Origin: a virus
Taxonomy: Duplodnaviria > Heunggongvirae > Uroviricota > Caudoviricetes
Length of the DNA stretch: 32,850 nucleotides
IMG/VR virus record: IMGVR_UViG_2548876941_000012
Strand: one strand, 5' to 3'
The position numbers and the translations under genes are program-made. Positions 2,956 through 17,750 of the stretch are shown here, piece by piece; positions within the stretch are counted from its first letter, which is position 1; every line of letters starts with the position of its first letter. The notes beneath the pieces were generated by a model. It ran no database searches and was not told where the DNA came from. It worked only from the letters and a program-made list of their open reading frames with translations.

Positions 2956-3194
2956 TGGAGAACAAGACGATGGACAAGCAGACCATTAACGCCGTCCGTT
3001 CCCGTGCCCGTGTGGCCATCCACACCACTGGTGGTCGTGTAACGGGACAACATCACCGTTTACCTGTGGTTTATGCCTGCCCGCCCGTGGGTGGTCCTGT
3101 ATGGCCGGTAACGGAAATCATCCAGACATTCAGCGGCCTGCGCCGCGTGGTGAAAACATCCTGTATCGACGGCTGCACCGTCGTATGGCAATGA
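2955..3194 (+). CDS. hypothetical early protein
   Basis: 79-aa ORF whose ATG overlaps the B stop codon (TGATG). No recognisable motif; possible alternative start at the internal Met (MDKQ). Confidence 0.4.
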   Translation: MENKTMDKQTINAVRSRARVAIHTTGGRVTGQHHRLPVVYACPPVGGPVWPVTEIIQTFSGLRRVVKTSCIDGCTVVWQ

Positions 3195-3206
3195 GAGGAA
3201 ATCAGA

Positions 3207-3422
3207 ATGGCGGTCAAGTTAGAAGTAATTATCTACACCGATGAAAATGGCACGCTTCGTGTCAGGAGTATGGGGGCTATTGATAAAAAAGGATTTACGG
3301 ATGAAGAGGTCGGTGTAAGACAACGGTTATGGGAGGTAATGAATCAAACTCTTAATAAAGAATTTAACGGCGTTGATTTATTTTCTGTTGGCGTGGAACC
3401 CTGCGCGCATAACACACATTAA
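3207..3422 (+). CDS. hypothetical early protein
   Basis: 71-aa ORF with good SD (AGAGGAAA) upstream of ATG; somewhat AT-richer than neighbours. Confidence 0.5.
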   Translation: MAVKLEVIIYTDENGTLRVRSMGAIDKKGFTDEEVGVRQRLWEVMNQTLNKEFNGVDLFSVGVEPCAHNTH

Positions 3423-8379: not shown

Positions 8380-8852
8380 TGAAAAAATGGTTGTTTTGTT
8401 TAGTAGGGGTTATTTTCTCTTGTTCTGTGCTAGCACAGACAGAGGAACAGGCGCAAAAGGAACTGAAACGTTATCAGGATATGAAGCCATTGGCTGAACA
8501 GATGCTTCGGGAAAGTGGAAAACTTTATTACGCTATGCCAGAAGCTGCATCGCAGTATCAGCAGGGAAATATTGAAGAGTGGAAGAATATCAAAAAAGGA
8601 CTAAAACAACTGGATGAACAGGCCAGTAAACTGGGGGACGACCCGCTTGATCCTGTGTATGGTTCCTGCATAAAAATGAAAAACCAGCTACAGGATTACT
8701 GGTCTAACGTTATCAGGGATGACAGGCAGTTTCTGGAGCGTTCAAGAAATCAGTTTAAAGAATATCGTATGGATTGTTTTGATTCGTTTGTTTTTGGTAA
8801 AGAGCAAATAGAATCAAGAAAAGGCCTGGTTATTCTAGACCTGACTAAATAA
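8376..8852 (+). CDS. secreted or periplasmic protein of unknown function (moron candidate)
   Basis: 158 aa with N-terminal signal peptide (MMKKWLFCLVGVIFSCSVLA, likely cleavage after VLA); visibly AT-richer than flanking phage genes; followed by a strong intrinsic terminator. Confidence 0.7.
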   Translation: MMKKWLFCLVGVIFSCSVLAQTEEQAQKELKRYQDMKPLAEQMLRESGKLYYAMPEAASQYQQGNIEEWKNIKKGLKQLDEQASKLGDDPLDPVYGSCIKMKNQLQDYWSNVIRDDRQFLERSRNQFKEYRMDCFDSFVFGKEQIESRKGLVILDLTK

Positions 8853-8862
8853 GACTTAGTTT

Positions 8863-8890
8863 AGCCCCTGCCATGCAGGGGCTTTTTTTG
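8863..8890 (+). terminator. rho-independent terminator
   Basis: AGCCCCTGC cat GCAGGGGCT stem-loop followed by TTTTTTT. Confidence 0.8.
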
Positions 8891-8894
8891 TGGT

Positions 8895-8923
8895 CTGTAC
8901 AGGCGATCATGTATGGCTATAAT
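8895..8923 (+). promoter_or_regulatory. promoter-like element with consensus -10 and weak -35
   Basis: TATAAT at 8918-8923; the hexamer 17 nt upstream is CTGTAC (poor match to TTGACA); about 30 nt upstream of the Mor/C-family gene. Confidence 0.45.
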
Positions 8924-8952
8924 AACAGTAAGTTACTACCGGAGACGCCATC

Positions 8953-9420
8953 ATGCAGACCTTCAGTGAAACAGATCTTCGCGATGCGCAGGCACTGCTG
9001 CCCGATTCCGTGCAGCAACTGATTAGCGTGATTGGCTTCCCCGCCCTGACCCGGTTGATTCGTTCTTTTGGTGGCGTGACGTTAAGCGGTAAAACCGGCG
9101 TACACGCCGAACGCACCGGCGGTGTCCATGCCCTGTTACATGACGTGCTCACCGAAGACGAAATCAACAAACTGATCCGCTTTCTTGGCGGTGCTCCGTT
9201 TTACATTCCCCGTTGCGATCATGCGTTACGTGCCCTGCGTAACACCCGTTTTATGGCTGATTTACAGCAGCATGTAAAAGACGGATGCTCACACCGGCAG
9301 GCGCTGGCACTGCTCTGTCCCCGTTACGGCATTTCAGACCGGTACGCATGGCAGCTGATACACCGACGACAAAAACAGACTTCGCTGAAAAGCCCCACCC
9401 AGGTGGGGCTTTTTGATTAA
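8953..9420 (+). CDS. Mor/C-family transcriptional activator
   Basis: 155 aa; LGGAPFYIPR motif and C-terminal HTH-like LCPRYGISDRYAWQLIHRR resemble Mu Mor/C proteins; position between early region and lysis genes. Confidence 0.7.
   Translation: MQTFSETDLRDAQALLPDSVQQLISVIGFPALTRLIRSFGGVTLSGKTGVHAERTGGVHALLHDVLTEDEINKLIRFLGGAPFYIPRCDHALRALRNTRFMADLQQHVKDGCSHRQALALLCPRYGISDRYAWQLIHRRQKQTSLKSPTQVGLFD
9391..9415 (+). terminator. rho-independent terminator overlapping the 3' end of the Mor/C-family gene
   Basis: AGCCCCAC ccag GTGGGGCT stem-loop followed by TTTTT, ending 3 nt before the stop codon. Confidence 0.7.
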
Positions 9421-9446
9421 TGGGCCTCAGAAAAAAGGAGACACTT

Positions 9447-9725
9447 ATGACCAACTATATGGCACTTGGCGAGTATACGGCCTACTCAGAGCAGGCCCGG
9501 GATGCTGCCGGACGTCGCTTTGCTTATATGAAAAATTTGGCCAGTCAGTTAAACCGAATGGCCGAACAACCGGATATGGTTGTTCAGGAAGAAGCGTTGC
9601 AGTGTGCCATTGCTGACATCATCGCCAGCGAAAACGAGATGCGCGCAGCGATGGAAAAGGCGAACGCCTCTGCTCCGCTTTGTAATAAACCTCTTATTAC
9701 GCCGGATTCTCTTTCCCGCTTCTGA
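9447..9725 (+). CDS. hypothetical protein
   Basis: Track ORF 9420-9725; ATG at 9447 has SD AGGAGA 6 nt upstream, giving 92 aa. Confidence 0.5.
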   Translation: MTNYMALGEYTAYSEQARDAAGRRFAYMKNLASQLNRMAEQPDMVVQEEALQCAIADIIASENEMRAAMEKANASAPLCNKPLITPDSLSRF

Positions 9726-9730
9726 TTTAT

Positions 9731-9750
9731 CACCCCGCCGCCGCGGGGTG
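9731..9750 (+). promoter_or_regulatory. GC-rich hairpin (CACCCCGC cgcc GCGGGGTG)
   Basis: Perfect 8-bp stem, 4-nt loop, no U-tract; its 3' arm overlaps the start of the dyad motif at 9748. Confidence 0.45.
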
Positions 9751-9775
9751 CTGAACTCCCCCAGCAGTACCCACC
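9748..9775 (+). promoter_or_regulatory. candidate late-promoter activator site, copy 1 (GTGCTGAACTCCCCCAGCAGTACCCACC)
   Basis: One of three copies of a GTGCTGAAC-NCCC motif found upstream of late operons (others at 17903 and 29821); about 130 nt upstream of the lysis cassette start. Confidence 0.5.
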
Positions 9776-9907
9776 ACACCAGACCGTTTACCCTGTCCAC
9801 TCAGACCACAAGGCACCTTAAGGGATAGCGCCCTGCAAAAGGCTTTTGTGCCTTTGACAGGGTGTTATTTACGGGCCGTCAGTGGCTCAGATTTACAGGA
9901 GAAACTC

Positions 9908-10300
9908 ATGTCTGAACCCTTATCAGGCGGCGGAGCTGTGGCAGTCACCATCGGTGGTGCCAGTGTGTTTGGCCTTCTCACCAATACCGATTTCGGGGTC
10001 GTGGTGGGCGCGTTTGCCGGGGCGCTTTTTGTTGTCACTCAGCAGAAAGAAATCCCGGTATGGCGAATGGCTATTCACCTGCTCGTCGCGTTTGTGGTTG
10101 GCGTTCTGGGGGCTGGCGTGGCTGCGTCACTGATGCAGTGGCTGACCCACTACAACGACAAACCGCTTGATGCATTGTGTGCGGTCGGTGTCTCGGCGTT
10201 ATCCATCAAGATACTGACCTTTCTTTATCAACAGGAAATTTCATCGCTGTTCGGCCTGTTTTCCAGACTGCGCGGCGGAGGGGGTGGAAATGGAAAGTAG
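9908..10300 (+). CDS. holin-like membrane protein
   Basis: Track ORF 9848-10300; ATG at 9908 with SD AGGAG; 130 aa with three hydrophobic helices; first gene of the lysis cassette. Confidence 0.6.
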   Translation: MSEPLSGGGAVAVTIGGASVFGLLTNTDFGVVVGAFAGALFVVTQQKEIPVWRMAIHLLVAFVVGVLGAGVAASLMQWLTHYNDKPLDALCAVGVSALSIKILTFLYQQEISSLFGLFSRLRGGGGGNGK

Positions 10301-10586
10301 CCTTGCCGGTATCGTGAACGTCTGGCTGTGTCTCGCCATTGTGCTGGGGTTGTTTGTGTATCGCCGCCACGGTGCGGCGCATAAACCGATGATTACCTGG
10401 CTGGCGTACTGGCTGATGCTCGGCTACATCATCATCCCGTTCCGCTGGCTGTCCGGTACATACACGCACTCCAGCTGGCTGGTTGTGGCGCTGAATCTGG
10501 TTTTCTGTGCGCTTATCGTGTGGGCGCACGGGAATTTGTCAAAAATCCTTTCGTTACTGAGGCATCCACATGAAATCAAAAGATGA
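10290..10586 (+). CDS. membrane protein (holin/antiholin-like)
   Basis: Track ORF 10284-10586 (GTG); ATG at 10290 with SD GGAGGGGG upstream; 98 aa with multiple hydrophobic helices; overlaps flanking genes. Confidence 0.5.
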   Translation: MESSLAGIVNVWLCLAIVLGLFVYRRHGAAHKPMITWLAYWLMLGYIIIPFRWLSGTYTHSSWLVVALNLVFCALIVWAHGNLSKILSLLRHPHEIKR

Positions 10587-11115
10587 CATTTTTGATGAAG
10601 TCCTGGGCAAAGAAGGCGGTTACGTCAATCACCCGGACGATAAGGGCGGTCCGACCAAATGGGGCATTACGGAAAAAGTCGCCCGCGCCCACGGATATCG
10701 TGGCGATATGCGCGATTTAACCCGCGAACAGGCGCTGGACATCCTTGAAGCCGATTACTGGTATGGCCCGCGATTTGACCAGATCGCCGCATTATCCCCT
10801 GATATTGCCGCAGAGCTGTGTGATACCGGTGTGAATATGGGGCCAACCGTGGCGTCCAGAATGCTTCAGCGCTGGCTGAATGTGTTCAATCTGCGCGGCA
10901 GGCTGTACCCGGATATGGACGCAGACGGACGCATCGGGCCTCGTACCATCAGTGCATTGCGCGCCTTCCTGAATAATCGCGGTCAGGACGGTGAACGGGT
11001 GATGCTGACGGCCCTGAACTGTACGCAGGGGGACCGCTATCTGGAACTGGCGGAGAAACGCGAGGCTAACGAATCGTTTGTTTATGGCTGGCTGAAGGAG
11101 CGCGTGGCGATATGA
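10570..11115 (+). CDS. endolysin (GH108-type lysozyme with peptidoglycan-binding domain)
   Basis: 181 aa; N-terminal KEGGYVNHPDDKGGPTKWGIT matches the GH108 signature as I recall it; no N-terminal signal or SAR segment. Confidence 0.8.
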   Translation: MKSKDDIFDEVLGKEGGYVNHPDDKGGPTKWGITEKVARAHGYRGDMRDLTREQALDILEADYWYGPRFDQIAALSPDIAAELCDTGVNMGPTVASRMLQRWLNVFNLRGRLYPDMDADGRIGPRTISALRAFLNNRGQDGERVMLTALNCTQGDRYLELAEKREANESFVYGWLKERVAI

Positions 11116-11294
11116 CGCGTCAGCACTGGACCCACAGAACGCCACGTAAAGCCGCGCGCTGTGTTCTGGCCCTGTTTCTGGTGATGTTGCTTCCGGTGGG
11201 ATGCACAGATATTAACAGAACGGGACAGCTGTTAGACGCGGCGGCGCAGGTCTGCCGGATTATTGACGGCATCCGGCAGTGTTCACAGAACTGA
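11112..11294 (+). CDS. small putative lipoprotein (possible outer-membrane spanin-like)
   Basis: 60 aa; hydrophobic N-terminal segment ending LLPVGC (lipobox-like) with further Cys residues; position after the endolysin. Confidence 0.45.
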   Translation: MTRQHWTHRTPRKAARCVLALFLVMLLPVGCTDINRTGQLLDAAAQVCRIIDGIRQCSQN

Positions 11295-11521
11295 TTTTTC
11301 GAAGGTCTGACACAGTGAGCATTATCAGATTTACAGAATACAGAGGTTCAGGAGGTGCTGGCGCTGTCATGGTGCTCGCTGAACGCATCACCCATTTTTA
11401 CCGTCAGTACGGTACACATGATGGCACGGTCATTGAACTGGATACCGGGAAAAACGTGTTTGTTCTTGAAAATCCCGACGAAGTTCAGCGCAGGATTGAA
11501 CAGGCTCAGAAGGACACTTAA
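11279..11521 (+). CDS. hypothetical protein
   Basis: 80-aa track ORF (GTG start); alternative GTG at 11315; no TM segment. Confidence 0.4.
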   Translation: MFTELIFRRSDTVSIIRFTEYRGSGGAGAVMVLAERITHFYRQYGTHDGTVIELDTGKNVFVLENPDEVQRRIEQAQKDT

Positions 11522-12021
11522 TGGCGTGGTCACAGGATATCAGGGACAAAGTCCGTAACGGGTACATCTTTGACCAGCTTCCGCTGGATATCGTCGCCAT
11601 GAAGTTCGCCGTGCCGCACGACACCGCGCGGCGCTGGAAAACGCAGGCGATGAAGAACGGCGACGACTGGGACAAGCTGCGGGCCGCTCACGCGCTCGCC
11701 GGTGACGGACTGGAAAGTGTCGCCCGCACCGTGCTTATCAGTCTGGTGGTGAAGTGTCAGACGACGCTTGAACGGCTGAACCAGAACCCGGACATCCCGC
11801 CGCAGGAGTCCGTCGAACTGCTGGCGAGTCTGTCCGACAGTCTCAGTAAGGCGGTGGCCAGCAGCAAAAAAATCCTGCCGGAAACCGACCGGCTCGCCAC
11901 GGCACTGGAAGTGGTGCAGCGGCTCGGCGCGTTCATCAAGGAGCGTCACCCGGCACAGTATGCCCCGTTTCTTGAGGTGCTCGAAGGCTTCGCTAAAGAG
12001 CTTGAGGATAATTTCAGTTAA
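11521..12021 (+). CDS. terminase small subunit-like protein (Mu gp27-like, tentative)
   Basis: 166 aa with N-terminal HTH-like region (IFDQLPLDIVAMKFAVPHDTARRWK); position upstream of the large terminase. Confidence 0.6.
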   Translation: MAWSQDIRDKVRNGYIFDQLPLDIVAMKFAVPHDTARRWKTQAMKNGDDWDKLRAAHALAGDGLESVARTVLISLVVKCQTTLERLNQNPDIPPQESVELLASLSDSLSKAVASSKKILPETDRLATALEVVQRLGAFIKERHPAQYAPFLEVLEGFAKELEDNFS

Positions 12022-12027
12022 CCACAG

Positions 12028-12047
12028 CGGCCCGGTTTTCCGGGCCG
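12028..12047 (+). promoter_or_regulatory. GC-rich hairpin (CGGCCCGG tttt CCGGGCCG)
   Basis: Perfect 8-bp stem immediately after the TerS-like stop, upstream of the methyltransferase gene; downstream U-tract is weak. Confidence 0.4.
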
Positions 12048-12067
12048 TCTGATATTCGGGATTTGTA

Positions 12068-12808
12068 ATGCAAAAACAGATTATTGGTAACGCAACGTTG
12101 TATTGCGGTGATGTTCTTGATGTGCTGCCGGCGTTATCCGAACGTTTTGATGCCGTCATTACCGACCCGCCTTACAGCAGTGGTGGCACACATAAATCAG
12201 ACCGCAGCATGGCCCCTTCGGACAAGTATGTCGGTCACACCCAGTATGCCGAGTTCAGCGGGGATAACCGCGACCAGCGCAGTTGGGCATACTGGAGCAC
12301 CCTGTGGATGTCCGGGGCTGCCCGCCTTGTGCGCCCCGGTGGTTATGTCATGGTGTTCAGTGACTGGCGACAGCTTCCCACCATGACCGACGTTTTTCAG
12401 GCCGGTGGTGTGCTGTGGCGTGGTCTTGTTGTCTGGGATAAAACGCAGGCTTCCCGTGCGCCACACACCGGCTATTTCCGGCATCAGGCCGAGTATGTGG
12501 TCTGGGGCAGCAACGGAAAACTCGACAAATGTCCGCACGGTGGCCCGTTCCCGGGTGTGATTACGCAGCGTGTTGTCCCGTCCGAAAAACTGCACATGAC
12601 CGCAAAGCCGGTTCAGCTGATGGCCGAGCTGGTTAAACCGCTGGCACCGGATGCGCACGTTCTCGATCCGTTTATGGGAAGCGGCACCACCGCCATCCCG
12701 GTACTTGCCCGTGGCGGACGGTTTACCGGCATTGAAATGACTAACCAGTATTTTGATATCGCCTGCGCACGTATCGAAAAAGCGCAGGCAGAAGCAGCGC
12801 AGGTGTGA
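12068..12808 (+). CDS. DNA methyltransferase, beta-class (N6-adenine or N4-cytosine)
   Basis: 246 aa; catalytic motif IV DPPY near the N-terminus (AVITDPPYSSGG), SAM-binding motif I near the C-terminus (VLDPFMGSGTT); this motif order is the beta-class arrangement. No adjacent restriction gene. Confidence 0.85.
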   Translation: MQKQIIGNATLYCGDVLDVLPALSERFDAVITDPPYSSGGTHKSDRSMAPSDKYVGHTQYAEFSGDNRDQRSWAYWSTLWMSGAARLVRPGGYVMVFSDWRQLPTMTDVFQAGGVLWRGLVVWDKTQASRAPHTGYFRHQAEYVVWGSNGKLDKCPHGGPFPGVITQRVVPSEKLHMTAKPVQLMAELVKPLAPDAHVLDPFMGSGTTAIPVLARGGRFTGIEMTNQYFDIACARIEKAQAEAAQV

Positions 12809-12809
12809 C

Positions 12810-14450
12810 GTGGCAAAACGTAAACTTTCCATTAAAGAGTTTCAGAGAAGCCTGCAGGAGTACATCGCCAACCTCCGCCAGACCATCGAGGCTGAATGTC
12901 TGGGGTTCGATGTAAACCCGCAGGCCACACAGGCCCGCCGGGCGGCAGTCTGTGACCCGGTGACGGGCTACGATTATTTTGTCGAAAACTATTTCCCGCA
13001 CTACGTCCGCAACCCGGCAAAAAGCGAGCTGCATAAATACCTGTTCAGCCGTCTGCCACAGGTTGTGGCAAGCCCGGACCCGGAGAACGACGCCATCGCC
13101 GCGCCCCGTGGTGAAGCAAAATCCACGCTGGTGACTCAGTTGTTTACCCTGTGGACCATTATCCGGGCCATTAAGCATTATCCGGTCATCATTATGGACA
13201 GTATCGACCAGGCTTATCCGATGCTGGAAGCCATCAAGGCTGAACTGGAATTTAACCCCCGTTTAAAAAACGATTTCCCGGAAGTGTGCGGGCAGGGTCG
13301 CGTCTGGCGTATGGGGACCATCGTCACGGCCAACAATATCAAGGTGACCGTTGCCGGTAGTGGTAAAAAGCTGCGTGGTCTGCGCCACGGTCCGTACCGT
13401 CCTGACCTGGTTATCCTCGACGACATCGAGAACGACGAGATGGTGCGTAACCCGGAGCAGCGCGACAAGCTGCATGACTGGCTCACCAAAACCGTGATGC
13501 CGCTGGGCGAGGCTGGTGGTAAAACAGATATTATTTATATCGGAACCATCCTGCATTACGACTCCGTACTGTCGCGCACACTCAATAATCCGATGTGGAA
13601 AACGGCCCGTTTTAAGGCCGTCATTCAGTGGCCTGCCAATATGAAGCTGTGGGACGAGTGGGAAGAACTCATCCGCAACAAACAGCCGGAAGCAGCAGAG
13701 GCACTTTACCGACAGAACGAAGCCGACATGCTCGCCGGGTCGGTGGTGTCATGGGCGGCGCGTCCCCTGCTGGCACTGATGAAAATCCGTGTCCGTGACG
13801 GTCATGACACCTTTGATTCTGAATACCAGAACGACCCGGTCAGCGGTGAAGATGCGCTGTTTGCGGGCTGCATTAAGTTCTGGGTTAACCGTCTTGATGA
13901 ATGGGTGTTTTATGGTGCTGTTGACCCCAGTCTCGGGAAGAAAAACAAAAACCGCGACCCGTCGGCCATTCTCGTGGGGGGCTTTAACCGCTTTACCGGC
14001 ATTCTGGATGTGGTTGAAGCCGATATCCGCCGACGTCTACCAAACAAACTTATCGAAGACGTGATTAAGTATCAGCGGGAATACCACTGTCTGTGCTGGT
14101 CGTTTGAGTCCGTCCAGTTTCAGGAGTTTCTGCGCACCGTGCTGGTTGAGCGTTCGGCGGCGCTGGGCGTTCCGGTTCCGGCGCTGCCGGTCATCCCGCT
14201 GGAGGATAAAGCGCTGCGTATCGAATCCCTTCAGCCGCATATGGCCAACGGCCTGATCCGCATCAGTCCGGCACATCAGACGCTGATTGACCAGCTGCGC
14301 CACTACCCCAAAGCCGACCACGATGATGGCCCGGACTGTCTGCACATGCTGTGGACGCTGGCGGTATCGCGTAGCGCAAAATTTCAGATACACACCCCAC
14401 GCAGCACCGGGCGTGACCGTGGCGGGCGTTTTGGTTCAGGAGGATGGTAA
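12810..14450 (+). CDS. terminase large subunit
   Basis: Track ORF 12753-14450 starts at a TTG inside the methyltransferase gene; GTG at 12810 is 2 nt after the methyltransferase stop. About 546 aa; position before the portal gene. Start is uncertain. Confidence 0.8.
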   Translation: MAKRKLSIKEFQRSLQEYIANLRQTIEAECLGFDVNPQATQARRAAVCDPVTGYDYFVENYFPHYVRNPAKSELHKYLFSRLPQVVASPDPENDAIAAPRGEAKSTLVTQLFTLWTIIRAIKHYPVIIMDSIDQAYPMLEAIKAELEFNPRLKNDFPEVCGQGRVWRMGTIVTANNIKVTVAGSGKKLRGLRHGPYRPDLVILDDIENDEMVRNPEQRDKLHDWLTKTVMPLGEAGGKTDIIYIGTILHYDSVLSRTLNNPMWKTARFKAVIQWPANMKLWDEWEELIRNKQPEAAEALYRQNEADMLAGSVVSWAARPLLALMKIRVRDGHDTFDSEYQNDPVSGEDALFAGCIKFWVNRLDEWVFYGAVDPSLGKKNKNRDPSAILVGGFNRFTGILDVVEADIRRRLPNKLIEDVIKYQREYHCLCWSFESVQFQEFLRTVLVERSAALGVPVPALPVIPLEDKALRIESLQPHMANGLIRISPAHQTLIDQLRHYPKADHDDGPDCLHMLWTLAVSRSAKFQIHTPRSTGRDRGGRFGSGGW

Positions 14451-14453
14451 TTA

Positions 14454-16049
14454 ATGGCACAGCTTGTTGATATTTACGGACGCCCGCTGAAATGTGAGGC
14501 ACTCAAAACCACGCAGTCGGTCAGAGTGGCGGAACGGCTGCGCATTTATCCAGACCACCCGTCGCGTGGTCTGAACATCAGAAAACTGCCGCGCATTCTG
14601 GAAGCTGCCGAACGCGGCTATCTTCCGGCGCAGGCGATGCTGTTTGCGGACATGGAAGAACGTGATGGCCATCTGTTCGCCGAGATGGAAAAGCGCAAAA
14701 AAGCCTTGCTGACACTGGACTGGTCGGTGGAGCCGCCCCGCAATGCCTCGAAGGCAGAAAAGGAGCTGACTGCCGCCGTGGATGAGTGGCTGCACGGCAT
14801 CCCGGACATGGAGGACATCATCCTCAACGGGATGACCAGTGTCGGTTATGGCTTCAGTTGTCAGGAAATCAGCTGGGCGTTCGTGGATAAAACGTGGTTA
14901 CCGGATGCGGTGACGCTGCGCCCGCATAACTGGTTTATTACCCTGCCGGAACACAATGACGAACTCCGGCTGGATGACGGCAACCGTGGGGAAGACGGTA
15001 AGGACGGTTCCGCATTGTGGCCATTCGGCTGGCTGGTTCACCGTTACAACGCCCGGTCGGGGTTCCTGGGTTCATCCGGCCTGTTCCGCGTACTGGTCTG
15101 GCCGTATCTGTTTAAAAACTTTGCGCTGCGTGATATGGCGGAATTTCTGGAGATTTACGGCCTTCCGGCGCGCATTGCCTACTATGCACAGGGCACCAGT
15201 GACGAAGACCGGGATAACATTCTTGAGGCGCTGGTCAATCTGGGGCATGAAGCGGTGGCAGCCCTGCCGCAGGGTAACGAGATTGAGTTCAAGGAAGCCG
15301 CATCCGGCGGACCGGAGGCGTTCATGTCGATGGTGGAATGGGCGGAGCGTACCACCTCAAAAGTGATTCTGGGCAGTACGCTGACCAGCCAGGCCGACGG
15401 TAAAACCTCCACCAACGCACTGGGTAATGTCCATAACGAGGTCCGGCACGACATTCTGACCGCTGATGCACGCCAGCTGTCCGGCATGTTCAGCAGTCTG
15501 ATACAGATGATGGCCAGTCTCAACGGCTGGCAGGATATCCCGTCACGCCGTCTTCCGCGCCTGGTGTTTGATGTGCAGCAGGAAGCTGACATTAAGGGCG
15601 TGGCGGAAGCCGTCAGCGTGTTGCTCAACAATGTGGGGATGAAGGATATCCCGGCGTCGTGGGTGCGCAAAAAAACCGGCATTCCCACCCCGAAAGACGG
15701 CGAAGAGGTACTGGTGCCGGTGGCACAGCCTCTCCCTGTGCAGGTTGGCCTCAGCCAGCTGCGTGAGCGGATGAATGTTGCCGCACTCAGTCAGCAGGGC
15801 AACGGGGAGGACGACCCGGCACAGAACGCCATCGACCGGGCAGAGCTTCCGGCAGAGGCCATCGCGCAGGGGATGAACGAACTGGTGGCTCCACTGGTGC
15901 AGGCCATACAGGAAGGCCGGGATGCAGACGAGGCTATGAACGTACTGGCGGAAGCGTGGCCGGAGCTGCCGGATGAAACGCTGCGGCAGTTGCTGACACA
16001 GGCATTCTTTGTGGCGGATATCTGGGGGCGACTGAATGCCGACAGCTGA
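14454..16049 (+). CDS. portal protein (Mu gp29-like)
   Basis: 531 aa; position between the large terminase and the F-like head morphogenesis gene. Confidence 0.8.
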   Translation: MAQLVDIYGRPLKCEALKTTQSVRVAERLRIYPDHPSRGLNIRKLPRILEAAERGYLPAQAMLFADMEERDGHLFAEMEKRKKALLTLDWSVEPPRNASKAEKELTAAVDEWLHGIPDMEDIILNGMTSVGYGFSCQEISWAFVDKTWLPDAVTLRPHNWFITLPEHNDELRLDDGNRGEDGKDGSALWPFGWLVHRYNARSGFLGSSGLFRVLVWPYLFKNFALRDMAEFLEIYGLPARIAYYAQGTSDEDRDNILEALVNLGHEAVAALPQGNEIEFKEAASGGPEAFMSMVEWAERTTSKVILGSTLTSQADGKTSTNALGNVHNEVRHDILTADARQLSGMFSSLIQMMASLNGWQDIPSRRLPRLVFDVQQEADIKGVAEAVSVLLNNVGMKDIPASWVRKKTGIPTPKDGEEVLVPVAQPLPVQVGLSQLRERMNVAALSQQGNGEDDPAQNAIDRAELPAEAIAQGMNELVAPLVQAIQEGRDADEAMNVLAEAWPELPDETLRQLLTQAFFVADIWGRLNADS

Positions 16050-17202
16050 CGATGTTGACCTGGGTTATGCGTACACCCTGAAGCCGGAAGAAGCGATTAA
16101 GTATTTCGAAAGCAAGGGATACGTTATCGGCTTCCGCTGGCACGATGTGAAGGACATCGCCAACGCCCGGGCGTTCACGGTGGCGGGCGTGCTGAAACTG
16201 GATGTGCTGAAGGATATTCGTGATGGCCTGACGGCCGCACTGGCTGACGGCGGGACGTTCCGGGAGTTTGCTGCACAACTGGAACCACTGCTGGAATCAA
16301 AAGGCTGGCTGGGTAAAAAGCTGATTGTGGACGAGGACACTGGCGAACTGCACGGCAGGCAGCTGACGCCGCGCCGGTTGCGCACGATATTTGATACCAA
16401 TATTCAGTCGTCCTACAACGCCGGACGCTATCAGCAGCAGATGGCGAACGTGGCCGACCGGCCTTATTTTGAGCGCGTGGCGGTGATGGACCTTCACACC
16501 CGCCCGAAACACGCCGCCCTGAACGGTTTTACCGCCCGGGCGGATGACCCGGTCTGGGAGTATTTCTACGCGCCGGACGGATACGGATGCCGCTGCCGTA
16601 TCCGGGCGCGTTCGGCGTCTGATGTGGAGAAATATGGCCTGACGGTGCAGAGCAGCGAGGGGCGACTGGTTGAGGTTGAGCAGGAATATGGCCAGCCGGG
16701 CCAGACCATCAGAACAATGGGGCTGAAGATGCCGGATGGCTCCGTATACACCGCTGACCCGGGCTTCGGTTTTAACCCCGGCAAAGTGTCATGGCAGCCG
16801 GAACTGGAAAAATACGATTACCGCAGCGCTCGCCAGTATGTCACCGGCACCCTGACCGGGCCGGATTTTGCCCGGGGGCTGGCGAACGTCAGCGAACTGG
16901 ATGCGCGCCAGCGATATCCGCTGACCATCCGTTCACCGGAACAGGTCGCCGCCACGGGCGCTGCACGGCAGACGGTAAACCTTACGGCTGACGTTATGAA
17001 GCGCCTCAGTGCAACAGACACGCCCCCGACCGCCGCCGACTATGCGCTGATGCAGCAGACCATCGAACGGGCGGAGCATGTCACGCAGGACGGTAACGCG
17101 TGGCGGTATGCGTTACAGTCGGGAGACCGCTGGTCAGTGGCGACGGTGGAGGGTGACGTGCTGACAGACTGGGTTATGCAGGACACACCGGAGGCATCAT
17201 GA
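16036..17202 (+). CDS. head morphogenesis protein (Mu F-like)
   Basis: 388 aa; overlaps the portal stop; TNIQSSYNAGRYQQQ segment recalled as typical of Mu F / SPP1 gp7-family proteins. Confidence 0.8.
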   Translation: MPTADDVDLGYAYTLKPEEAIKYFESKGYVIGFRWHDVKDIANARAFTVAGVLKLDVLKDIRDGLTAALADGGTFREFAAQLEPLLESKGWLGKKLIVDEDTGELHGRQLTPRRLRTIFDTNIQSSYNAGRYQQQMANVADRPYFERVAVMDLHTRPKHAALNGFTARADDPVWEYFYAPDGYGCRCRIRARSASDVEKYGLTVQSSEGRLVEVEQEYGQPGQTIRTMGLKMPDGSVYTADPGFGFNPGKVSWQPELEKYDYRSARQYVTGTLTGPDFARGLANVSELDARQRYPLTIRSPEQVAATGAARQTVNLTADVMKRLSATDTPPTAADYALMQQTIERAEHVTQDGNAWRYALQSGDRWSVATVEGDVLTDWVMQDTPEAS

Positions 17203-17750
17203 GCAGCGGTGAACTGGATATTAAGATTGATTTAAGCGCGTATAACACCACGCTGGGTAAACTGATTCGTTCCGTGAAGGACCGGCGCGACCTGATGACG
17301 GCGCTTGCGGGTTCCATGCTGGATGCGGTTGAGACTAACTTTGAACAACAGGGTCGCCCGAAATGGATGGGCTGGAGTCCGGCTTATGCGAAGCGGCGCG
17401 GCCCCGGGCAAATCCTTCAGAAGTCCGGGCGACTGGCCGCCAGTATCCGCTCTGCGGTTAACAATAACGAGGCCACGGTCGGGACAAACGTCCGTTATGC
17501 CCGTATCCACAACGAAGGCGGCGAAATCCGCCATCAGGCACGGACGCAGAACCTGTATTTTAAACAGTACAAAAACGGCAGCGTCAGCACCCGCTTTGTG
17601 AAAAAGCGCAACAGTAATTTTGTGCAGAGCGCAACGGTCGGAGCGTATACGGTCAACATGCCCGCGCGCCCCTTCCTTCAGCTTGTGCAGGACGACATCG
17701 ACGAGCTGGAGAACACCGCAAACCGCTATTTTGCGCGTGTGATTGACTGA
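17199..17750 (+). CDS. virion morphogenesis protein (Mu G-like)
   Basis: 183 aa; ATGA overlap with F; position before the I protease/scaffold gene. Confidence 0.65.
   Translation: MSSGELDIKIDLSAYNTTLGKLIRSVKDRRDLMTALAGSMLDAVETNFEQQGRPKWMGWSPAYAKRRGPGQILQKSGRLAASIRSAVNNNEATVGTNVRYARIHNEGGEIRHQARTQNLYFKQYKNGSVSTRFVKKRNSNFVQSATVGAYTVNMPARPFLQLVQDDIDELENTANRYFARVID

Follow-up and report, generated by a model that had tools for sequence, protein, structure and literature searches.

The window analysed here, the whole stretch of 32,850 nucleotides, consisted of a Mu-like prophage that was 99.4% identical to its counterpart in Escherichia coli E2348/69. A megablast search of positions 11000–14500 against the GenBank phage collection revealed no near-identical phage record, and the element is known only in prophage form. 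A DNA methyltransferase gene was located between a DUF1804 gene and the gene of the large terminase subunit (TerL), which was followed by a Mu-type portal gene. RefSeq already labels the E2348/69 counterpart of this gene as a DNA methyltransferase. The features of the locus were distributed as follows.

8953–9420, + strand: Mor/C-family transcription activator gene, its counterpart in the E2348/69 prophage (99.4% identical) bearing the label 'Mor transcription activator family protein'
11521–12021, + strand: DUF1804 gene, left flank (PF08822, E 1.8e-52; phrog_756 'DNA binding protein', E 1.8e-67)
12029–12046, + strand: GC-rich hairpin with a 7-bp stem and a TTTT loop (GGCCCGG-TTTT-CCGGGCC)
12057–12799, + strand: inserted cassette of 743 bp, delimited by junction alignments against loci L004, L005 and L006
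12068–12808, + strand: methyltransferase ORF, ATG to TGA, 246 aa
12164–12175, + strand: motif IV DPPY, catalytic, residues 33–36 (direct sequence reading)
12671–12691, + strand: motif I FMGSGTT, AdoMet binding, residues 202–208 (direct sequence reading)
12800–12812, + strand: backbone junction CAGGTGTGAC-GTG, the same whether or not a prophage carries the methyltransferase
12810–14450, + strand: large terminase (TerL) gene with a GTG start, right flank (phrog_38, E 3.5e-143; TIGR01630, E 2.4e-24; RefSeq terL)

The initial annotation had described ORF 12068–12808 as a beta-class amino-methyltransferase in which DPPY precedes FxGSGTT. Both motifs were present exactly so, and the position of motif IV on the N-terminal side of motif I is the order of the beta class. 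Sequence profiles and the predicted fold agreed with this class. The Pfam search matched N6_N4_Mtase (PF01555) far above the cut-off, with an E value of 6.5e-23 and 82.3 bits against a gathering cut-off of 26.7. The PADLOC model MTase_II (PDLC03321) matched over the full length (E 1.6e-64), phrog_67 matched with an E value of 1.1e-55, and 7437 homologues could be collected at E<=1e-10. Judged from such similarities, the identification is well beyond chance. The more narrowly named NCBIfam families all scored below their cut-offs, namely NF010253 (PRK13699; 75.6 against 244), the CcrM model (56.1 against 830) and PRK11524 (YhdJ; 40.2 against 292), which places the protein outside the plasmid PRK13699, YhdJ and CcrM families.

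Loss of catalytic residues on careful alignment had been named as one observation that would overturn the assignment. Instead, an alignment of 32 homologues contained 68 invariant columns, including TDPPYSSG, H176-x-T-x-KP and DPFMGS, so that T32-D-P-P-Y-S-S-G39 and D200-P-F-M-G-S205 were both fully retained. The AlphaFold2 model of the enzyme reached a mean pLDDT of 86.2 and a pTM of 0.85. Foldseek comparison of this model returned CcrM, M1.HpyAVI, M.BceJIV, TTHA0409, M.MboIIA, M.PvuII and M.RsrI with a probability of 1.00; CcrM, M1.HpyAVI, M.BceJIV and other beta-class enzymes were the top matches, and the query-normalised TM scores of the beta-class matches were 0.63–0.75. M1.HpyAVI of Helicobacter pylori (PDB 5hfj, 5hek), a compact beta-class N6-adenine enzyme of 232 aa, was also the best sequence match of solved structure (E 5e-15, full length), and its DPPY and DPFMGSGTT lined up with those of the window enzyme. 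However, this enzyme is chromosomal and only about 22–24% identical, and its specificity is not transferable to the window enzyme.

The D/N-versus-S rule for the first residue of motif IV is a rule of thumb by which D points to N6-adenine. Since the D of DPPY was invariant, the predicted enzyme is most probably specific for N6-adenine and not for N4-cytosine, although the presence of N4C enzymes (rotifer N4CMT, M.PvuII) among the structural matches counts against a firm adenine assignment. Comparison with the orthologues of nine other loci revealed intact ORFs with dN/dS values of 0.03–0.27, a pattern that shows purifying selection on the ORF. The family, the fold and the intact catalytic and AdoMet-binding motifs of the ORF could thus be shown from its sequence, while the activity itself is a prediction.

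On the left, the DUF1804 product is presumptively a small terminase or DNA-binding packaging protein; because it is not similar to Mu gp27, the TerS role was assigned from position only. In SuMu, as in numerous further Mu-like loci, the DUF1804 gene lies directly 5' of TerL, and the TerL of the window was 64% identical to that of SuMu and 60% identical to that of D3112. The initial annotation had argued from adjacency of the terminase genes in Mu, and this argument could be retained only in part. BLASTP rejected the flanking proteins as homologues of Mu gp27 and gp28, gp27 belonging to another Pfam family (PF11985). By sequence, the Mu proteins are analogues and not homologues of the flanking packaging proteins, which are of the SuMu/D3112 type. 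The adjacency argument therefore rests on SuMu/D3112-type loci instead of Mu, as DUF1804 and TerL were adjacent in ten more distant Mu-like loci with an apparent gap of -4 to 33 nt.

The hairpin reported ahead of the gene was real, with a minimum free energy of -23.1 kcal/mol (z = -2.7) for region 12015–12075, but it belonged to the phage backbone and not to the methyltransferase cassette. E. coli prophages with an empty site carry it unchanged, and it was conserved in Yersinia and Trabulsiella. A role as terminator could be rejected, as the hairpin has no T-tract, was not called by the terminator scan and is present in the empty-site relatives. No Rfam match was obtained within positions 11000–13200.

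Insertion of the gene between a TerS-like gene and TerL, as first proposed, could be demonstrated by empty sites in 19 E. coli prophages and in Trabulsiella. Alignment against empty-site loci placed the exact junctions at 12056/12057 and 12799/12800; the relatives carry seven nucleotides, TGTATAC, where the cassette stands, and match lengths of 3501 bp with the gene and 2765 bp without it agreed with the cassette size. The weak Shine-Dalgarno sequence GGGA at 12058–12061 is the cassette's own. At the right junction, the segment 12800–12812 holds the end of the methyltransferase ORF (its final two codons and TGA) together with the Shine-Dalgarno sequence AGGTG and the GTG of TerL. The identity of this segment in prophages of both kinds assigns the TerL ribosome-binding site and start to the backbone and not to the cassette. 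The methyltransferase gene overlaps that ribosome-binding site, and the gap between its stop and TerL, given earlier as 2 nt, is in fact 1 nt (C12809, between TGA at 12806–12808 and GTG at 12810).

The gene was present in 36 E. coli genomes, while the site was empty in 19 complete ones, the prophages compared being about 96–98% identical in the shared DNA of the 3.5-kb region. In strains 2824 (with the gene) and 47-1826 (without it), many early proteins of the prophages were identical. The equivalent empty site of the Trabulsiella prophage speaks against a fresh deletion. The base composition of the cassette did not appear foreign, with a GC content of 0.55–0.60 as in the flanks. Taken together, the aligned sequences show a presence/absence polymorphism with exact junctions and a true insertion. 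Presence or absence at the gene boundary between otherwise near-identical phages is the mark of a cargo gene ('moron'); a classical autonomous moron would carry its own promoter and terminator and so be expressed from a repressed prophage, and the promoter scan revealed no sigma-70-like promoter in or before the cassette. The gene is best described as operon-embedded cargo.

The enzyme had also been claimed to be solitary, and this was borne out. No restriction endonuclease was annotated in three prophage copies (two with and one without the methyltransferase), the gene's direct neighbours were DUF1804 and TerL, and PADLOC found nothing in nine other ORFs of the window, the small hypothetical early ORFs being profiled in part. 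According to the prophage annotations, no mom or com gene was present at the right end, where the prophage stops after its tail-fibre genes, and no Com-like ORF lay upstream of the methyltransferase gene in the window. The prophage thus contains neither a cognate endonuclease nor mom/com genes. A missing partner endonuclease and a gene that is dispensable in nature could also suggest that the ORF merely looks intact and is left over, without function, from an earlier restriction-modification system. Such a relic is hardly credible, as all catalytic and cofactor motifs were invariant, dN/dS was low, the structure model was confident and the same slot has been kept across five genera.

The orthologues behind this last point were found in Mu-like prophages of Yersinia enterocolitica, Serratia, Intestinirhabdus alba and Buttiauxella (P0002, P0014; L008, L009, L018, L019). 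These proteins are 246 aa long and 77–83% identical, and their genes show the same order of DUF1804, methyltransferase, TerL and Mu-type portal with the stop abutting the TerL start, but the host genera and the upstream lysis modules differ. Because the orthologues share the slot and diverge about as the flanking genes do (83% and 77% identity, compared to 86% and 74% for DUF1804 and 77% and 73% for the portal), their sequences suggest a long residence of the gene between DUF1804 and TerL in five genera.

The wider family occupies several other positions. In Salmonella Mu-like prophages it lies between holin and lysozyme; elsewhere it follows the portal gene or occurs in late regions of P2-like phages, including tail regions. 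The enzyme of the P2-like Escherichia phage Chuche, which is Com-associated, was 55% identical over the full length (E 4e-95), and those of Burkholderia phages and Stenotrophomonas phage Smp131 were 43–46% identical. These P2-like relatives are orphans in the late regions of temperate phages with a presumed anti-restriction role (PMC3091744). They carry the Com zinc-ribbon translational regulator (PF10122) directly ahead of the gene, whereas the window gene has no com and lies in a lysis-packaging operon. A Com zinc-ribbon gene stood directly upstream in 25 of the 80 viral family loci, which is the arrangement of mom in Mu, as exemplified by KS5 gp20/gp21 (PMC3091744). Bpm (bbp30) of Bordetella phage BPP-1, an orphan annotated as adenine methylase, shared 52% identity over 94% of the length but lies in the early/regulatory region of a podovirus, beside cro and a primase gene. 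The central region of the protein was highly conserved from Enterobacterales to Burkholderiales in the 32-homologue alignment. A literature search yielded no biochemical data on any family member, and searches on BPP-1 Bpm, E2348/69 methylomes and phage methyltransferase motif surveys yielded no usable literature on the target, the BPP-1 genome paper lying outside their coverage.

The terminase-side position raises the question of a function in packaging or replication, in which the methylation state of phage DNA would influence its recognition or cutting by the terminase, in the manner of Dam methylation at the pac site of P1. The gene does lie between DUF1804 and TerL, ends 1 nt ahead of the TerL start codon and runs across the ribosome-binding site of TerL, and the family stands next to TerL or the portal gene in several independent Mu-like lineages. 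Nevertheless, such a function is very improbable, since close relatives without the gene retain intact packaging genes, the family also occurs in lysis cassettes and P2-like tail regions, and the slot holds unrelated cargo in other Mu-like phages (orf25 in D3112, small ORFs in a Klebsiella phage). Because of this unrelated cargo, the DUF1804/TerL gap is marked by its sequence content as a permissive insertion site and not as a functional linkage.

Regarding expression, the ORFs from 9848 to 17750 all run along the + strand, spaced by no more than about 75 nt. Scanning of the + strand from 9725 to 14600 revealed no promoter-like site and a single terminator-like site at chance level. The Mor/C-type product of 8953–9420 is presumed, by analogy with Mu biology, to activate the late operon in which the methyltransferase gene lies. 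Phage-borne orphan methyltransferases are a well-known means of counter-defence. The late anti-restriction role proposed initially agrees with the layout of the operon and with the consistent placement of family members among late genes, and we infer that it is the best explanation. It is fairly probable that the gene encodes an intact solitary beta-class enzyme, carried as optional 743-bp cargo in the first late operon, which serves in late anti-restriction methylation. The gene would be transcribed only after induction, when the Mor/C-type activator would drive the contiguous lysis, packaging and head genes of this strand as one operon. Phage DNA would then be methylated once replicated, either ahead of headful packaging or in its course, and the virions would inject DNA already protected against restriction enzymes whose sites overlap the target of the methyltransferase. 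The regulation would be unlike that of the P2-like relatives, since neither a Com regulator nor a dedicated promoter is present here. Any benefit would be conditional, because a third of the related E. coli prophages lack the gene.

Orphan methyltransferases of prophages can in general change host methylomes, and the gene is under purifying selection. Both points would also suit an epigenetic regulator of lysogenic conversion, which the prophage would express in the lysogenic state and which would change transcription or phase variation of the host instead of protecting phage DNA. This role appears improbable for a gene in a tightly packed late operon that has no promoter-like site of its own, where the hairpin ahead of the gene is backbone and every family context found was a late structural or lysis module. 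In addition, the comparable enzymes M.EcoGII, Hia5 and Hin1523 are silent in lysogens (PMC5778455, PMC3299994).

The proposed late anti-restriction enzyme would fill in the present prophage, which lacks Mom, the role that Mom has in Mu. The likeness to Mom/Com would lie in late protective DNA modification; the window protein belongs to PF01555 and is not homologous to Mom, and membership in the Mom/Com module could be rejected as no com or mom is present in the prophage. The non-specific adenine methyltransferases Hin1523, Nma1821, Hia5 and M.EcoGII also modify phage DNA late against restriction and are silent in the lysogen (PMC3299994, PMC5778455). Kinship with the Hia5 family could be rejected, as that family is Dam-related and not beta-class (PMC3299994). 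M.EcoGII-type enzymes are beta-class like the window enzyme, but the shared sequence is limited to motif regions: BLASTP against the enzyme of phage 1720a-02 aligned only the regions of motifs I and IV (39.7 and 26.9 bits), which excludes close kinship. The positions differ as well, since Mom-type and replacement genes follow com at the right end or, in lambdoid phages, lie downstream of Q, while the window gene lies between DUF1804 and TerL.

A further reading, compatible with late anti-restriction methylation and a sharper version of it, is that the enzyme has a relaxed or very short specificity and methylates adenines in many or most contexts, like the Hia5/Hin1523 family and M.EcoGII, providing broad protection of the kind that Mom gives Mu. 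The compact conserved family (about 246 aa) would then add a third lineage of separate origin to the broad-spectrum 'Mom-like' adenine methyltransferases of phages, with the window gene as a mom replacement, and would be deployed late either from a lysis-packaging operon, as in Mu-like phages, or under Com control, as in P2-like phages. The prophage has neither mom nor com, and non-specific adenine methyltransferases replace mom in other Mu-like prophages (PMC3299994). Family members of P2-like phages stand directly behind Com, the control used for the toxic Mom (PMC3091744). Moreover, the protein is near the minimum size of its class, with the best PDB sequence match, M1.HpyAVI, similarly small (232 aa), and the conservation of the central region makes it likely that family members have a specificity or a way of binding DNA in common. 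However, small size does not predict relaxed specificity, and the window carries no Com gene. Homology to the known promiscuous enzymes was also missing, as Hia5 and Hin1523 are Dam-like (PMC3299994) and the M.EcoGII-type enzyme of 1720a-02 matched in the motif regions only, with 39.7 bits over 56 residues. We therefore regard this relaxed specificity, and with it the Mom-like lineage, as unlikely.

The methyltransferase gene belongs to an ordinary class of phage accessory genes, and with the label already given in RefSeq the present finding adds detail and no new principle. Complete E. coli genomes offer a natural pair of prophages, one carrying the gene and one lacking it, whose early regions encode many identical proteins; through this pair the benefit of a late-operon methyltransferase to a transposable phage can be probed. 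The interval between DUF1804 and TerL can be regarded as a defined permissive cargo slot of SuMu/D3112-type Mu-like phages. The connection of the family to Com-type translational control in P2-like phages hints that its expression may need restraint, as that of Mom does. If relaxed specificity were true, the family could provide a small new tool enzyme and would represent a clear convergent replacement of Mom.

The initial annotation had described a methyltransferase (MTase) ORF next to the terminase genes, and this ORF of 246 amino acids, reading from ATG to TGA, was present as described. The features of the locus were as follows.

8953-9420: gene for a Mor/C-family protein
11521-12021, + strand: DUF1804 (TerS-like) gene, upstream neighbour of the MTase
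12068-12808, + strand: MTase ORF
12164-12175, + strand: motif IV, DPPY (residues 33-36)
12671-12691, + strand: motif I, FMGSGTT (residues 202-208)
12810-14450, + strand: large terminase (TerL) gene with a GTG start, downstream neighbour of the MTase, followed by a Mu-type portal gene

Gene calls and profile matches agreed in placing the MTase between the DUF1804 gene and TerL. Motif IV lies ahead of motif I, which gives the beta-class order already proposed for it. The profile search for the methyltransferase class revealed PF01555 (N6_N4_Mtase; E 6.5e-23, 82.3 bits, cut-off 26.7), while the PADLOC Type II methyltransferase model PDLC03321 was matched at full length (E 1.6e-64) and phrog_67 with E 1.1e-55. 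A total of 7437 homologues were found at E ≤ 1e-10, and the family match was far above chance. The AlphaFold2 model was confident (mean pLDDT 86.2, pTM 0.85), and the best PDB matches of this predicted fold were all beta-class amino-methyltransferases (CcrM, M1.HpyAVI, M.BceJIV, TTHA0409, M.MboIIA, M.PvuII, M.RsrI, and rotifer N4CMT). The low-confidence parts of the model, the loop following DPPY (residues ~40-70) and residues ~121-140 including the conserved HTGYFRHQ segment, may plausibly be DNA-contact elements. N4C enzymes typically carry SPPY/F. Since the Asp of DPPY is invariant, N6-adenine is favoured as the putative target base; neither homology nor the literature consulted yielded a target specificity.

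Alignment of 32 homologues, down to 56% identity, revealed 68 invariant columns, with invariant blocks at T32-DPPYSSG, D99-WRQL, P132-H-x-GYFRHQ-x-EY, H176-x-T-x-KP, and D200-PFMGS. No loss of catalytic residues was seen, as TDPPYSSG and DPFMGS were invariant throughout. The reading frame was open in all 10 MTase copies examined, and pairwise dN/dS against the window MTase was 0.03-0.27, with dS saturated in distant pairs. The gene is thus intact and selected, and the conserved motifs and purifying selection make an inactive relic hardly credible. Orthologues in Yersinia and Serratia were 83% and 77% identical, respectively, in line with the divergence of the flanking genes (DUF1804, 86% and 74%; portal, 77% and 73%; TerL, 91% and 90%). 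Two MTase alleles could be observed among the gene-carrying E. coli prophages (window 12218-12394, residues ~51-109; IMG/VR loci L043-L046 and L077, positions 3151-3300). Between them, the flanks were 98-100% identical at the nucleotide level, while a ~150-bp patch fell to ~81% and held 15 of the 18-21 amino-acid differences (residues 64-109; predicted helix 70-85, strand 88-98). The patch appears to stem from recombination within the gene; the segment also varies family-wide.

The insertion was delimited by searching 5,426 complete E. coli genomes with window 11000-14500, which produced 58 matching records. Full cover including the MTase was found in 35 of them, and one further partial match also included the gene. 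In 19 records the shared DNA was ~96-98% identical with ~736 bp missing, and the DUF1804 gene and terL were annotated side by side; the remaining 3 were plasmid matches of ~115 bp, confined to the endolysin region. Alignment showed common sequence through 12056 (...GTCTGATATT) and again from 12800 (CAGGTGTGAC-GTG), with TGTATAC at the empty site in place of the 743 bp at 12057-12799. The proposed insertion between the terminase genes is thus borne out by 19 relatives with an empty site and base-exact junctions. By these positions, the backbone includes the hairpin, the GTG of TerL with its Shine-Dalgarno sequence, and the last two codons and stop of the MTase; all that the cassette brings is the remainder of the ORF with a weak GGGA ribosome-binding site. 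The GC-rich hairpin reported ahead of the MTase is real (GGCCCGG-TTTT-CCGGGCC, 12029-12046; -23.1 kcal/mol and z = -2.7 for segment 12015-12075) and does lie upstream, but it is not part of the cassette. The gap of 2 nt given for the TerL junction is actually 1 nt (C12809, between TGA and GTG). A fresh deletion as the origin of the empty site was ruled out by an equivalent site in Trabulsiella (DUF1804 77%, TerL 81% identical), which reads hairpin, ~20 nt, CAGGGG, GTG; the empty site is an old allele. The cassette had a GC content of 0.55-0.60, the same as its flanks. It is nearly certain that the gene is an intact orphan beta-class DNA methyltransferase borne as optional cargo.

The terminase genes had been compared to those of Mu. 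The Mu genes are indeed close (gp27/gp28, 7 nt apart), but the pair is only analogous, not homologous: the gp27 family is PF11985, not DUF1804, and BLASTP gave no significant similarity of the window packaging genes to gp27/gp28. Because these packaging genes are of other types than those of Mu, adjacency was re-tested on D3112/SuMu-type relatives; TerL was 60-69% identical to that of D3112, SuMu, and a Klebsiella Mu-like phage. Among 28 loci from different species, each combining a DUF1804 gene with a TerL of this type, the MTase occupied the slot only in one clade, in which TerL was at least 88% identical and which comprises Yersinia, Serratia, Intestinirhabdus, and Buttiauxella, plus the Escherichia window. 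DUF1804 and TerL were adjacent in 10 distant loci (apparent gap -4 to 33 nt), and other inserts of ~130-1,200 bp were found in 12, which makes the slot a permissive cargo site. In D3112 the insert is orf25 on the opposite strand (L017 1963-2499), with no Pfam match; Klebsiella phage ST405-OXA48phi1.1 carries three small ORFs (L015 1567-2472) and a Salmonella prophage several, including a 159-aa reverse-strand ORF (L011 6529-7592). The slot looks like a general accessory-gene hotspot.

The window is an E. coli prophage of the Mu-like, transposable kind, starting at the transposase gene. Over 32,186 bp it is 99.4% identical to the one located in eutC of EPEC strain E2348/69, whose MTase copy is labelled 'DNA-methyltransferase' in RefSeq (WP_001171800.1). 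Prophages of this type also occur in hyfB (strain 2824) and a ynfE/F-like gene (strain 47-1826), and MTase-carrying copies were seen on ~249-kb E. coli plasmids (NZ_OZ547097.1, NZ_OZ547049.1). The varied interrupted genes and plasmid copies are consistent with recent Mu-type transposition. The MTase proved solitary: no restriction endonuclease was annotated in three annotated prophage copies, and PADLOC gave no defence-system match in nine other window ORFs. The lysis module directly upstream of the packaging genes is exchanged in close relatives, with an M15 metallopeptidase (strain STEC346, L005 98-475; records H88 and H106-H113) versus a GH108 endolysin (window 10570-11115); this is modular exchange. 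A 'SPASM domain-containing protein' was additionally listed under the match in some records. A small conserved ORF at 11279-11521 (phrog_7691, function-unknown label; annotated as 50 aa from 11369) overlaps the DUF1804 start by TAATG; it lies beside DUF1804 in E. coli and Yersinia prophages, and a similar-sized, similarly placed ORF precedes DUF1804 in Serratia. At its end, the window has a 684-bp stretch (32167-32850, tail-fibre region) that was 99.1% identical to L041 (strain 2824) 43008-42325 in inverted orientation, and the E2348/69 alignment ends at 32186. This suggests an invertible tail-fibre cassette resembling the Mu G segment, although no invertase was annotated inside the prophage.

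The wider family was surveyed in 80 IMG/VR loci with relatives at least 51% identical. The DUF1804, MTase, TerL arrangement occurred in 9; in 2 a TerL of another type lies just downstream of the MTase or ~0.5 kb away, in 4 the MTase directly follows a Mu-type portal gene, and in 1 it lies between holin and lysozyme (Salmonella Mu-like arrangement). In a Salmonella enterica Mu-like prophage (L011-L013, 3807-5286), a 62%-identical MTase of the family likewise sits between the holin and lysozyme genes and overlaps each by 4 nt, which makes a second, independent slot of the same late operon. Two samples from the remaining loci were P2-like late regions, with the MTase flanked by head-completion and tail-completion genes in one and by an invertase and the tail sheath gene in the other. 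Every identified context among these Mu-like and P2-like loci was a late module. A role as packaging modulator is very improbable, since natural empty-site phages keep their packaging genes intact and the family occurs in other genomic slots. The closest named phage relatives were Escherichia phage Chuche (55% identical), Bordetella BPP-1 Bpm (52%), and Propionibacterium and Mycobacterium phage methylases (45-49%). A Com zinc-ribbon ORF lay immediately upstream of the MTase in 25 of the 80 loci (Com of Chuche against PF10122, 44.5 bits), as in the gp20/gp21 pair of Burkholderia phage KS5 (PMC3091744).

This Com association could indicate a relaxed-specificity substitute for Mom. Unlike Mu, the E2348/69 and 2824 prophages have no gin, com, or mom homologue annotated at the right end, which directly follows the tail-fibre and tail-fibre-assembly genes (L001 ~42195-43242 and L041 ~42202-43162, respectively), and non-specific methyltransferases are known to take the place of mom in Mu-like prophages (PMC3299994). 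However, the MTase is not homologous to the known non-specific enzymes: Hia5-type enzymes are Dam-like, and the M.EcoGII type has only the motif regions in common with it. Such a substitute is therefore considered unlikely.

The MTase belongs to an unbroken + strand ORF run (9848-17750) of holins, endolysin, DUF1804, MTase, TerL, portal, and head-morphogenesis genes, with gaps of at most ~75 nt. On the + strand of 9725-14600, the scan revealed no promoter-like site and only one terminator-like site, at chance level; the MTase stop and the TerL ribosome-binding site overlap. The sequence shortly ahead of the Mor/C-family activator gene holds a strong terminator-like hairpin that has a T-tract (8863-8883) and, directly after it, TGTACA-16-TATAAT (8896-8923); no other good sigma-70-like promoter lies in 8800-14600. 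The pair probably marks the early/middle transcription boundary. The operon position of the MTase and the fact that similar prophage enzymes stay silent in lysogens (PMC5778455, PMC3299994) make a lysogen-expressed epigenetic regulator quite improbable. Instead, the MTase would be transcribed only after induction, with the Mor/C-family protein activating the late promoter, and would methylate replicated phage copies ahead of headful packaging, so that injected DNA would be pre-protected against restriction enzymes with sites overlapping its motif. This full chain, from late expression to protected DNA, is reasonably probable. A benefit that depends on conditions would agree with the presence/absence polymorphism, and exposure to methylation-dependent restriction may be a cost of methylation.

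Phage-borne orphan beta-class methyltransferases are a well-known kind, and the RefSeq annotation already says so for this gene. What is added here are the exact cassette boundaries, the assignment of the hairpin to the phage backbone, naturally occurring pairs of MTase-positive and MTase-negative prophages, a DUF1804-TerL cargo slot, and the recurrent late-gene and Com-linked contexts of the MTase family.
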